Shown here in pieces: positions 15,391-56,732 of a stretch of DNA of 64,000 bases. The stretch comes from Candidatus Latescibacterota bacterium (lineage in GTDB: Bacteria > Latescibacterota > UBA2968 > GCA-2709665): NCBI GenBank assembly GCA_965205485.1, contig OZ242180.1, forward strand, positions 2,656,001 through 2,720,000, written 5' to 3'. A program made the translations under genes and the position numbers. The stretch's first letter is position 1; each line of letters starts with the position of its first letter. The notes under the pieces are model-generated. The model was not told the DNA's origin. It searched no databases and saw only the letters and a list, made by a program, of their open reading frames with translations.

Positions 15391-16200
15391 ATGCGGACTC
15401 GCGTGATATCATCCATTTGTGCGGCGTTGTTATTTGTCGGAACGGCGTTGGCCGGAGAAATGACCCGCGGACTGACCATTACCGGCGGCCGTAACGCCGG
15501 CGCGACGCTGAAGCTGGAGCGCGTGAACGATCCGGGCGCCGAAAGCGGCGTTCTGAAACTGCACGTGTCGGTGGCGCAAACCGATGAACTGAAGGGTTAC
15601 GGTCTTTCCCTTCAGTTCGATCCCGTGAAATACGAGTTCGTGAACGCCACGGAACTCGAGGGGAACCTGCTGAAATCCGGTTCCGGGCAGGAGACGCTGT
15701 TTCTGTCGTCGAACCGGACGCCGGGGCAGGTGGACGTCGGCGCGGTGAAGATCGACGGCCGGGGCGCCAGCGGCGGCGGGAAGCTCGTCGAGCTTGTGTT
15801 CAGGACGAGCGGAACGCCGTTGTCGTCCGACTTTCAGGTATCCGAAAACGTCCTGGTGAGCATGGATGGGGCCGTGGACAGGCTGCATCACGCTGAAATA
15901 GGCGATCTGAAGCCGCTGCCGGATCGATTCAGTCTGGAGCAGAATATGCCCAACCCGTTCAATCCCTCCACCGCGATCGGCTACCAGTTGCCGGAGGCGG
16001 GAATGGTCCGGCTGGCAATCTACAATCTCATCGGCCAGGAAGTGCGCGTGCTGGTGAACGAGCACAGGAGCGCCGGCTCCTTTACTGCAACGTGGGATGG
16101 GGCGGACGCGCTGGGCAGGCGCGTCGCCAGCGGCATTTATCTGTATCGGATACAGGCGGGCAGTTTCTCGGCCACGAAAAGGATGCTGCTACTGAAATAG
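15391..16200 (+). CDS. Secreted cohesin-like domain + C-terminal T9SS-like/FlgD-Ig domain (candidate anchoring scaffoldin)
   Basis: AGGAGG RBS; signal peptide ending ALA; cohesin pattern LKGYGLSLQFDPVKYEFV...SGGGKLVELVF; CTD FSLEQNMPNPFNPSTAIGY...ASGIYLYRI...KRMLLLK. Confidence 0.8.
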   Translation: MRTRVISSICAALLFVGTALAGEMTRGLTITGGRNAGATLKLERVNDPGAESGVLKLHVSVAQTDELKGYGLSLQFDPVKYEFVNATELEGNLLKSGSGQETLFLSSNRTPGQVDVGAVKIDGRGASGGGKLVELVFRTSGTPLSSDFQVSENVLVSMDGAVDRLHHAEIGDLKPLPDRFSLEQNMPNPFNPSTAIGYQLPEAGMVRLAIYNLIGQEVRVLVNEHRSAGSFTATWDGADALGRRVASGIYLYRIQAGSFSATKRMLLLK

Positions 16201-16392
16201 TCCTGACTCCGATTCGACGTTTCTGAACCTGGATGACGCCGTGTACACGACAGCAGTCGGCAATGTCAGTCTATCGGGCCACACAGCCGGCGCTGGCGGC
16301 TGGTTCAAGACGTCGCGACCGTAAGGTTTGGACTCCGGACCCGGGCGTGGCGCCGGAACGAAATCGTCGTCGAAACAAAGGAGTGTTCCTCG

Positions 16393-55103: not shown

Positions 55104-55145
55104 CGTGAGGCTTATCCGGGACGGGGTGAATTGCGGGTTTGCCGC

Positions 55146-56732
55146 TCACGGCGACATGCCGAAATTCCGCGCGAATAAAATGAAGTCTGAGAATGACACG
55201 GTGCGGTCTCCATCCAGATCGAACGAGGGATCGAATCCCGGCCGGCCCGCTGATTTGCCGAATCCCGCGGCGAATGCGATGAAATCCGAAAACCCCACCG
55301 TGCCGCTGGCGTCGAAGTCCGCCGCCGCCGGAACGTGGCCGTCGCGCCTTGCGAGAGAAAATGAGTAGGTCTGCGGACCCGCGGACGTGCGCGTGAAGGC
55401 CAATACGGTTGGCGACTCGCTGTACAGACCGATGCGGCGGCGCGCGCCGTGCGGGACCGGGACGGCAGCGACGTCGTGCGTGTCTTCCCGTTCGGAAACC
55501 AGCGTCACAAGCAGATCGCTGTCGCTCCTGACGTCCAGCGAGAGGCCGGGTGGTCCCGACGTACGCGGCACGACATAGTCGATGCCCCAGAGCTGGAGGG
55601 CGCCGCCAAGGTCGTCGGCGGGAACCGTGACGGTATCCCTGCTGATCGGACCCAGGGAGAGCCCGTGGTATCCCAGGCCGCCGTCGTCGTTCACGAACAC
55701 GGCGGCCGTCCAATCCGCCCAGAATTTTTCGAACCGCTCCTCGGCGCCGATATCTTCAAGAGTTCGATTGTAGCCGTCAATGCTGTTTGCCGGTTCGGCG
55801 ACCAGACGCGCTACGGCCGCATCGCCGTAACGCTGGGCGAAGTAGGTCGTCAGCAGAAAGGTCTGGTCGAACAGGAACGGCAGGCAGGCGCCCTTGGACC
55901 AGCTGGAAGCATCCGTCAGGCCGGTATTGGGCGGTACAGGCAGGTTCGAGACGGGCGATTTCAGCAGATTGGGAACGACCAGGAATTTCTGCGCAACCTC
56001 GACGGTTGCATTCTTGTAGCCGCAGGCCAGTTCGGCGTACTCAGAACAGCCCTCATCCACCCATCTGTCTTCGTCGGGATCCCCGTTCCAGTGCAGCATG
56101 TGCTGGAACTCGTGGGCAAGTGTGGCGCGCGCCAGATCGCTGTTCAGGTCCAGGGGATCGCTGTCGATATAGAGGATTTCCCTGCCGACCGGCGCCGCCT
56201 GATTGGCGGTATCGTAATAACCCACGATCGTGCCGCTCAGGATATTGTCCAGAATATCCAGCAGCACGATCACGATCCGAGGGTCGCCGTCCGCGTCGGG
56301 TGGAGGACCGAAGATTTCGGTACCGACGGAGTAAATCCCGCGGTCGGGATACCGGGGGGTTGACCGGTCGAAAGCGCGGATAAGGGACGTGAGGGCGGCC
56401 GGCGTTACGCGCGAACCGTCCCAGATAACGTCCTCCACGAAGATATAGCAGTGTTCGCCTTTCAGGCGGCAGGTCGTCGTGGTGAGGTAATACGGATCGG
56501 TACCTGGAACCGCGCCGAAATTAAAGACACGAACGGTCAGAGGGTCGCCGACGTCAAACGTCTCGGCGGCCGTTTTTTTTACCGCCGCCCCTGGCATTGG
56601 ACGCGAGGGCAGATAGGGGGTGCCGCAATGGGCATCGGGGCCGGCGAAGGCCGAGGTCTTGAGGAGCAGGCAGAACACGATCCCTGCAGAGGCAGAACAC
56701 CAAGACACCCGACTCGATACGGAAGAAGCCAA
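55146..56732 (-). CDS. Secreted gluzincin-type metallopeptidase with C-terminal long-type dockerin
   Basis: HCGTP propeptide; TLAHEFQHMLH...WVDEGCSE; ADFDASGTVGFSDF...DLDGDRTVSFSDF. Confidence 0.82.
   Translation of the reverse strand: MASSVSSRVSWCSASAGIVFCLLLKTSAFAGPDAHCGTPYLPSRPMPGAAVKKTAAETFDVGDPLTVRVFNFGAVPGTDPYYLTTTTCRLKGEHCYIFVEDVIWDGSRVTPAALTSLIRAFDRSTPRYPDRGIYSVGTEIFGPPPDADGDPRIVIVLLDILDNILSGTIVGYYDTANQAAPVGREILYIDSDPLDLNSDLARATLAHEFQHMLHWNGDPDEDRWVDEGCSEYAELACGYKNATVEVAQKFLVVPNLLKSPVSNLPVPPNTGLTDASSWSKGACLPFLFDQTFLLTTYFAQRYGDAAVARLVAEPANSIDGYNRTLEDIGAEERFEKFWADWTAAVFVNDDGGLGYHGLSLGPISRDTVTVPADDLGGALQLWGIDYVVPRTSGPPGLSLDVRSDSDLLVTLVSEREDTHDVAAVPVPHGARRRIGLYSESPTVLAFTRTSAGPQTYSFSLARRDGHVPAAADFDASGTVGFSDFIAFAAGFGKSAGRPGFDPSFDLDGDRTVSFSDFILFARNFGMSP

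Follow-up and report, generated by a model that had tools for sequence, protein, structure and literature searches.

What does a bacterium do with modules resembling cohesins and dockerins at a place where no glycoside hydrolase is recognisable? The question is raised by a stretch of 64,000 nucleotides of a Candidatus Latescibacterota bacterium (referred to here as the window), which spans bases 2,656,001-2,720,000 of a 5.13-Mb genome assembled in one contig and 97% complete. The large genes at positions 15391-56732 of the window lie nearly all on the + strand with short gaps between them, and a sequence-only reading had taken them for a surface complex of anchor, adaptors and cargo held together by cohesin-dockerin pairs. 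To our knowledge, almost all known cases of cohesin-dockerin assembly serve Gram-positive anaerobes in breaking down plant cell walls. Our analysis suggests that a cohesin-dockerin surface assembly probably does operate here. More tentatively, gene linkage points to a specific code between two cohesin families (c1 and c2) and two dockerin classes (docA and docB), in which c1 would pair with docB and c2 with docA. Genes are named by their left-hand coordinate in the window.

Dockerin modules and cohesin domains

The eleven twin-EF-hand dockerin-like modules that had been noted in the array were all confirmed by translation and alignment. A pattern scan finds ten of them, the copy in 19718 deviating at one pattern position. 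The loop D-x-[DN]-x-[DN]-G...D occurs twice per module in 11/11, giving the tandem 12-residue EF-hand-like calcium loop plus helix that characterizes dockerins. The modules fall into two classes. The docA class (n = 7; in 19718, 26731, 29729/30355, 33408, 34806, 38333 and 42683) is 48 residues long, has a linker six residues shorter than that of docB, and always forms the last residues of its protein. The docB class (n = 4) has 54-55 residues and a long linker, and is internal in 16393 (residues 176-230) and 35907 (residues 326-379) and C-terminal in 47162 and 55146 (minus strand). The seven docA copies of the window are 67-92% identical to one another and sit on unrelated host proteins, as expected for tails that share a partner.

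Against solved structures, a profile containing docB matches type II dockerins (4wi0_B, 3e-5; 2y3n_B, 5e-5; 4u3s_B, 6e-5), which rank before calmodulins. For the docA profile, the dockerin 2y3n_B (3.7e-5) is the sole one of the matches listed that spans both calcium loops in one stretch. With the Pfam Dockerin model (PF00404, Dockerin_1; gathering score 22.9 bits), 16393 scores above the cut-off (32.9 bits), 47162 (21.7) and 35907 (21.3) fall just below it, and the docB of 55146 gives no match.

Hidden Markov models (HMMs) built from the window modules find 95 dockerin-bearing reading frames in the genome, 91 of them at 40 bits or more; among these 91, the module is C-terminal in 52 and near the N-terminus in 29. 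The Pfam Dockerin model gives 45 matches in the genome at E <=0.01. No other 64-kb stretch of the genome is as dense in dockerin frames as the window, whose 11 lie far above chance at a mean of 1.19 per 64 kb. Cohesin-fold domains number ~15 across the genome (8 c1, 5 c2 and 2 weak Pfam matches).

The cohesin-like domains had been assigned to three genes, one in 15391 together with a C-terminal sorting domain (CTD) of the T9SS (type IX secretion system), and one in 16393 and two in 35907 together with a dockerin. These assignments hold. In 15391, the c1 domain is recognised by Foldseek as a cohesin and the CTD scores above the cut-off of TIGR04183; in 16393 and 35907, both the cohesin fold (c2) and docB were found. 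The AF2 model of 15391 is of moderate confidence, with a mean pLDDT of 70 (72-89 across most of the cohesin part); its top Foldseek matches in the PDB are cohesins with a target TM of 0.55-0.70. The c2 model reaches a pLDDT of 97.3, with cohesins filling 9/10 of the top Foldseek ranks. The closest structural matches to both families are cohesins solved in complex with dockerins, and the predicted models show the nine-stranded jelly-roll beta-sandwich typical of cohesins. On these models, both c1 and c2 have the cohesin fold. Thus, the check by fold bears out both families, whereas by Pfam score both remain under the cut-off. With phmmer, neither a lone c1 nor a lone c2 domain gave a meaningful match among PDB sequences. 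When the c1 and c2 families were compared by hhalign on the genome's own, shallow alignments, the probability was 1.3% and only the stretch 'L-x-G-x-x-L-x-F/Y-D...FV-x-A' was aligned.

In the genome, the c1 family retrieved by jackhmmer comprises five small cohesin-CTD proteins plus two proteins with Pfam-passing cohesins, and a precomputed Pfam Cohesin (PF00963) assignment is present on 17/120 listed homologues of 15391. The two c2 copies of 35907 are 66-71% identical to that of 16393. The c2 family extends to 181 clusters (50% identity) at E <=0.001 among 1.84 billion representatives, and PF00963 is found on 1/34 of the c2-family members scanned (5.9e-4). The c2 domain is thus a cohesin family that current domain libraries miss, described here as new.

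Gene linkage and a possible two-tier assembly

For the linkage of the classes, docA was counted strictly, at >=85 bits in the window's own genome and >=95 bits across genomes. The own genome holds 11 strict docA modules, seven in the window and four in a second array at 513-524 kb. Both arrays contain c2, and strict docA occurs nowhere else. Across 16 genomes, strict docA lies <=25 kb from c2 in 87/93 cases (median 6.5 kb) among the matches listed, with 31 further c2 matches outside that listing; the other 6/93 are on contigs without any listed c2. Since the 16 genomes are kin, these counts are not independent. The c1 domain is linked to the other class: a docB gene lies <=214 bases from 4/5 of the c1-CTD genes in the own genome.

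The order of genes is repeated as well. The second array is a paralogue and, at 508-530 kb of the genome, has the same order of c1-CTD, c2-docB adaptor and docA cargo, with identities to the window of 87% for the c1-CTD protein, 79% for the c2 adaptor, 73% for the 19718-like and 74% for the 26608-like protein. This order is also present in the sister family (loci L090 and L091). Among 41 relatives, a search with the c2 protein finds c2 in 35, and strict docA is present in 16. In a phylum-wide sample searched with the same query, c2 was found in 45/168 genomes, all of the taxonomic order to which the window's genome belongs (15/21 in one family, 29/31 in a second, plus the window's genome), and in 0/115 genomes of the other twelve families. 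The source names of close protein homologues are Gemmatimonadota metagenome-assembled genomes and one Latescibacteria. When related loci were sought for the 15391 family, with its CTD motif as the seed, most of what came back were CTD proteins from the FCB group that are unrelated to it, and the search was of no use for synteny.

The anchoring candidate carries at its C-terminus a sorting domain of T9SS type A (TIGR04183 30.4 bits against a cut-off of 23; FlgD_ig 36.3 against 27), and the SprA translocon is present in the genome (636.6 bits summed, above cut-off). The genome contains 12 Por_Secre_tail matches and 23 FlgD_ig/CTD matches, and 7/23 of the latter are cohesin carriers. The only PorU-like gene of the genome (6148-12051) lies 3.3 kb upstream of the array, the other matches to the PorU model covering the CTD part alone. 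The best PorV-like gene is found 0.8-1.75 kb beyond the window's end, and the array is thus flanked by the two. From the T9SS and outer-membrane components, we infer a diderm envelope.

Together, the linkage of docA to c2 and of docB to c1 suggests a two-tier assembly, in which the anchor domain c1 binds docB and the adaptor domain c2 binds docA. In the model we propose, all proteins would enter the periplasm via signal peptides. The T9SS would export 15391, and the PorU-like sortase would attach it to the cell's outer face. The docB modules, whether on the adaptors (16393, 35907) or on the cargo proteins (47162, 55146), would then plug into c1-type cohesins, and the seven docA tails would occupy the adaptors' three c2 cohesins. 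The outcome would be a calcium-dependent, two-tier complex on the cell surface, coating the cell with metzincin-like peptidases and with repeat proteins of a eukaryote-like kind (WD40, LRR, YWTD, FN3, cadherin, GLUG). The targets of such a coat could be proteins of a host or prey, not polysaccharide.

Weighing the proposed assembly against other readings

The surface complex predicted from sequence is supported by its modules, the cohesin fold, the CTD on 15391, SprA, the linkage and the paralogous array in the same order. Several points weigh against it. The docA modules score under the Dockerin cut-off (16.6 bits for 19718 and 17.2 for 33408, against 22.9), c1 reaches 16.4 bits with the Pfam Cohesin model (E 0.011, profile positions 17-123 of 139; gathering score 24.1 bits), and the three c2 copies give no Pfam Cohesin match at E <=10. 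Two secretion components are similarly short of their thresholds: the PorU-like protein scores 313.8 bits against 420 for NF033707 (T9SS sortase PorU), and the best PorV-like match (G000:C1:2720803-2721750) 105 + 49 bits against 250. GldM (TIGR03517) was not found in the genome, and the same search matched no control genome either. In the relatives L086, L087, L092 and L093, c2-docB genes stand in tandem without docA nearby. Finally, ~95 proteins of the genome combine a signal peptide and a dockerin without a CTD, and neither GspD nor a Secretin domain was found in the genome by two HMM searches. The way of the dockerin cargo across the outer membrane is thus a gap in the model.

The first alternative concerns this gap. 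Cohesin-CTD carriers might bring dockerin proteins already folded in the periplasm through SprA, so that the cohesin-dockerin pair would be a secretion coupler first and an anchor second. The imbalance of 95 dockerin frames to ~23 CTD matches, seven of them with cohesins, would fit such a piggy-back route, as would the lack of a detectable secretin in a nearly complete single-contig genome, the presence of SprA, and the location of the array between the sole PorU-like gene and the highest-scoring PorV-like match. However, cargo is not known to hitch-hike through the T9SS, the proteins to be carried are large (up to 1427 residues plus adaptor), other routes such as unknown systems, vesicles or lysis could serve, and the secretin absence depends on those two HMM searches. 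We regard piggy-back export as unlikely. We give no better chance to its wider form, in which ~90 dockerin proteins would ride with cohesins bearing the sole T9SS signals and stay plugged on the surface in the two-tier c1/docB, c2/docA code.

A second alternative concerns the partner of c2. The gap between c2 and docB is only 2-6 residues in the window, in the genome's two other c2 proteins and in most c2 frames of eight relatives' loci. From the c2-docB genes without docA in relatives, and from the wider occurrence of c2 than of strict docA among the 41 genomes, it follows that c2 must often have another partner, which is possibly docB itself. A head-to-tail polymer thus stays a live rival: each docB would plug into the c2 of the next protein, giving chains or a matrix of propellers and peptidases, and docA cargo would sit on c1 or elsewhere. 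Yet this arrangement leaves unexplained why strict docA is restricted to arrays with c2 and why c1-CTD genes adjoin docB genes, and we rate it slightly below the export alternative.

A related protein was observed in the sister family, where the loci L088 (9787-10956) and L089 (9229-10395) encode a conserved ~390-residue protein with an N-terminal c2 and a distinct C-terminal variant of docB. Open reading frames (ORFs) of 384-400 residues for a protein of this kind occur in many genomes of one genus (g6), and it may represent a minimal self-complementary unit.

The least probable reading, by a small step, is that no complex forms, the twin EF-hands being stand-alone calcium-binding, stabilising or sorting tags and the cohesin-fold domains beta-sandwich spacers or ligand-binding modules: the ~7:1 ratio of dockerin-like frames to cohesin-fold domains, the Pfam matches mostly under cut-offs and the jelly-roll sandwiches of other function that score close behind cohesins would agree with it, but the tight, repeated linkage of particular dockerin to particular cohesin classes, the close identity of docA tails on differing hosts and the best structural matches to cohesins solved with dockerins argue against it.

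Cargo, array layout and comparison with known systems

The features of the array and its upstream genes are collected in Table 1. The two response-regulator/AraC-HTH genes that the sequence-only reading had named as regulators of the array are indeed present upstream of it, as candidates for that role. On the array proteins, Pfam recognises Ldl_recept_b (YWTD), WD40, LRR, Glug, fn3, Cadherin and CARDB. The cargo list of the sequence-only reading is thus substantiated for YWTD, WD40, LRR, GLUG, FN3 and cadherin, while its zinc peptidases mostly have weak reprolysin- or leishmanolysin-type matches. The motif HExxHxxGxxH is present in the N-terminal domains of 26731, 38333 and 47162, where reprolysin-type matches are weak, and the C-terminal part of 35907 is leishmanolysin-like (Peptidase_M8 23.6 against a cut-off of 21). 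Genome-wide, the family of the metzincin-like N-terminal domain comprises 13 frames, and a dockerin is present on 11 of these.

As had been noted, no glycoside hydrolase (GH) is recognisable: neither a GH nor a carbohydrate-binding module (CBM) is among the Pfam matches listed for the array proteins of the window, the listing for the three WD40 proteins being the best 25 of 45-52 families and the genome's other 84 dockerin proteins lying outside the scan. A true cellulosome, with dockerin-bearing carbohydrate-active enzymes (CAZymes) and a CBM-bearing scaffoldin, was considered and rejected on this basis.

Table 1 Features of the array and of the genes upstream of it, in window coordinates
Feature	Position	Strand	Evidence
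PorU-like C25 peptidase, 1967 aa; propeptide, CARDB, C-terminal sorting domain	6148..12051	+	Pfam Peptidase_C25 6.7e-69, Propeptide_C25, FlgD_ig
Two response-regulator/AraC-HTH genes upstream of the array	12889-13635, 13770-14537	+	Response_reg + HTH_18/HTH_AraC
Anchor candidate: signal peptide, cohesin c1 (~15454-15915), T9SS type A CTD (~15949-16197)	15391..16200	+	Pfam Cohesin, TIGR04183, AF2/Foldseek
Adaptor candidate 1: signal peptide, c2 (16462-16908), docB (16918-17082), 2 x (CARDB + YWTD/LDL-receptor-B propeller)	16393..19704	+	
Cargo: ~6 Ig-like repeats, cadherin, YWTD propeller, LRR, C-terminal docA (IVNF variant)	19718..23872	+	Translation, Pfam, alignment
Cargo: metzincin-like peptidase (HELGHAFGLQH), WD40 propeller, LRR, C-terminal docA	26731..29607 (ORF from 26608)	+	Reprolysin-type matches below cut-off
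Cargo: GLUG repeats, LRR, C-terminal docA; reading frame broken between 30106 and 30358	29729..33357	+	
Cargo: five 'GIWSDGTTMWVAD' repeats, FN3, C-terminal docA	33408..34754	+	
Cargo: 'GIWSDGTTMWVAD' type repeats, C-terminal docA	34806..35885 (ORF from 34761)	+	
Adaptor candidate 2: signal peptide, two c2 (35976-36422, 36423-36872), docB (36882-37043), CARDB, leishmanolysin-like HExxH domain	35907..38261	+	
Cargo: metzincin-like peptidase, WD40, LRR, FN3, LRR, C-terminal docA	38333..42541 (ORF from 38258)	+	Reprolysin_5 27.5 vs cut-off 27
Cargo: 'GIWSDGTTMWVAD' repeats, FN3, C-terminal docA	42683..44047 (ORF from 42563)	+	
Cargo: metzincin-like peptidase, WD40, C-terminal docB	47162..49663	+	
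Cargo: HExxH protein, weak Peptidase_M30 match, C-terminal docB	55146..56732	-	

One gene of the array differs from its first description. The GLUG protein had been read as a single gene from 29729. The frame from this position, however, runs into a stop at 30358, and it is another frame, open over 30106-33357, that bears the dockerin. The DNA at 30106-30360 is a degenerate direct repeat, and contigs of runs X1 and X4 (short reads) carry 15 extra letters behind 30266, inside the frame-break stretch. Thus, the break may be an assembly error. A total of 22 runs were listed, none of them RNA. Over pieces of 600-1500 bases, the X1 and X4 contigs show 0-4 differences from the window, and runs X6 and X13, labelled sponge metagenome, yield pieces that differ at ~1-10% of positions. 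Over window positions 33010-34343, the summed contig depth in run X4 is 1273-3501 on the 'GIWSDGTTMWVAD' repeat gene versus 10-180 elsewhere, and this repeat family is probably common to many genes or organisms in the sample of that run.

Other genes accompany the array. Five small lipoprotein-like genes interrupt it at 23967-26511. The first (23967-24410) is weakly BamE-like, and the other four (24472-25083, 25080-25529, 25574-26023 and 26080-26511) are paralogues that share 'MQTRAFDTTD...TVTVRPRGETQ' and matched no family. Downstream, two genes lie on the minus strand at 58285-64000. The product of one has 1133 residues, a peptidase-MA-like region and propeller repeats of the PD40/TolB type; that of the other combines FG-GAP repeats with a CTD of the Por_Secre_tail form. 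Positions 1-6277, which precede the PorU-like gene on its upstream side, hold genes for a sulfotransferase, two GT4 glycosyltransferases, an NAD-dependent epimerase/dehydratase and a PMT_2-like membrane protein, which may constitute a surface-glycan cluster.

A whole order of uncultured bacteria appears to have put cohesin-dockerin pairs to general use in surface display. Runs labelled sponge metagenome contain relatives, and the cargo consists of peptidases and eukaryote-like repeat proteins, a protein class long suspected of a part in host interaction. The predicted c1/docB and c2/docA code offers a concrete scheme of pairing, and new orthogonal cohesin-dockerin pairs would serve protein-assembly engineering. 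The question raised by the genome is how the dockerin cargo gets across the outer membrane with no secretin found; the secretion-coupler reading, if true, would amount to a hitch-hiker mode of type IX secretion.

Among known systems, the cellulosomes of clostridia and ruminococci (Acetivibrio cellulolyticus ScaA/ScaB; Ruminococcus flavefaciens ScaA/ScaB/ScaE) are the source of the solved chains closest to c1, c2 and docB. They share with the array jelly-roll cohesins and twin-loop dockerins, two dockerin classes, adaptors that combine cohesin and dockerin, and a small single-cohesin anchor. In contrast to them, the array showed neither a GH nor a CBM and its cargo is made of peptidases and repeat proteins, a protein carries at most two cohesins, most modules score under the Pfam cut-offs, the host has T9SS and outer-membrane components, and a T9SS CTD takes the place of a sortase or SLH module as the anchor. 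The non-cellulosomal cohesins of Clostridium perfringens (PDB 2vo8, 2jh2 and 2w1n) are more distant: they lie inside large glycoside hydrolases of a Gram-positive pathogen, have neither CTD anchor nor adaptor tier, and show 11% sequence identity.

Attachment in the Bacteroidota by T9SS type A (PorU/PorV/PorZ) resembles the array in the TIGR04183 end of 15391 and in the SprA, PorU-like and PorV-like genes. There, however, every cargo protein has its own CTD, whereas here most candidates carry a dockerin and the CTD is on cohesin proteins only.

In the literature on dockerins in Gemmatimonadota, Latescibacteria, Poribacteria and sponge symbionts, we found no dockerin system on eukaryote-like repeat proteins, and our literature search gave no description of the c2 family. 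One paper (PMC7081726) mentions 'cellulosome-affiliated enzymes' in Latescibacteria, citing Farag et al. 2017. It also mentions that PAUC34f, a candidate phylum associated with sponges, has eukaryotic-like domains.

The nearest precedent that we found is a cellulosome-like complex predicted from the genome of an uncultured bacterium, Ca. Stygibacter of the Cloacimonadota (Williams et al. 2021, PMC8542988). That complex, too, is proposed to include peptidases (S8, C25) with dockerin tags, and its cohesin protein would be attached through a T9SS-type conserved C-terminal domain. It differs in having one scaffoldin of 3,755 residues with tandem cohesins and CBM2/CBM3, plus GH18 and GH57. By comparison, the system reported here has many small single-cohesin CTD anchors, a second cohesin family fused to a dockerin, two dockerin classes, no CBM or GH seen, and eukaryote-like repeat cargo. 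A CTD-anchored cellulosome-like system is thus already known as a prediction from the Cloacimonadota. New here are the c2 cohesin family, so far without annotation, the dockerin code with its two classes and the non-CAZyme cargo, together with the few CTD-bearing cohesin anchors that, in a genome with no secretin found, would serve ~95 dockerin proteins.

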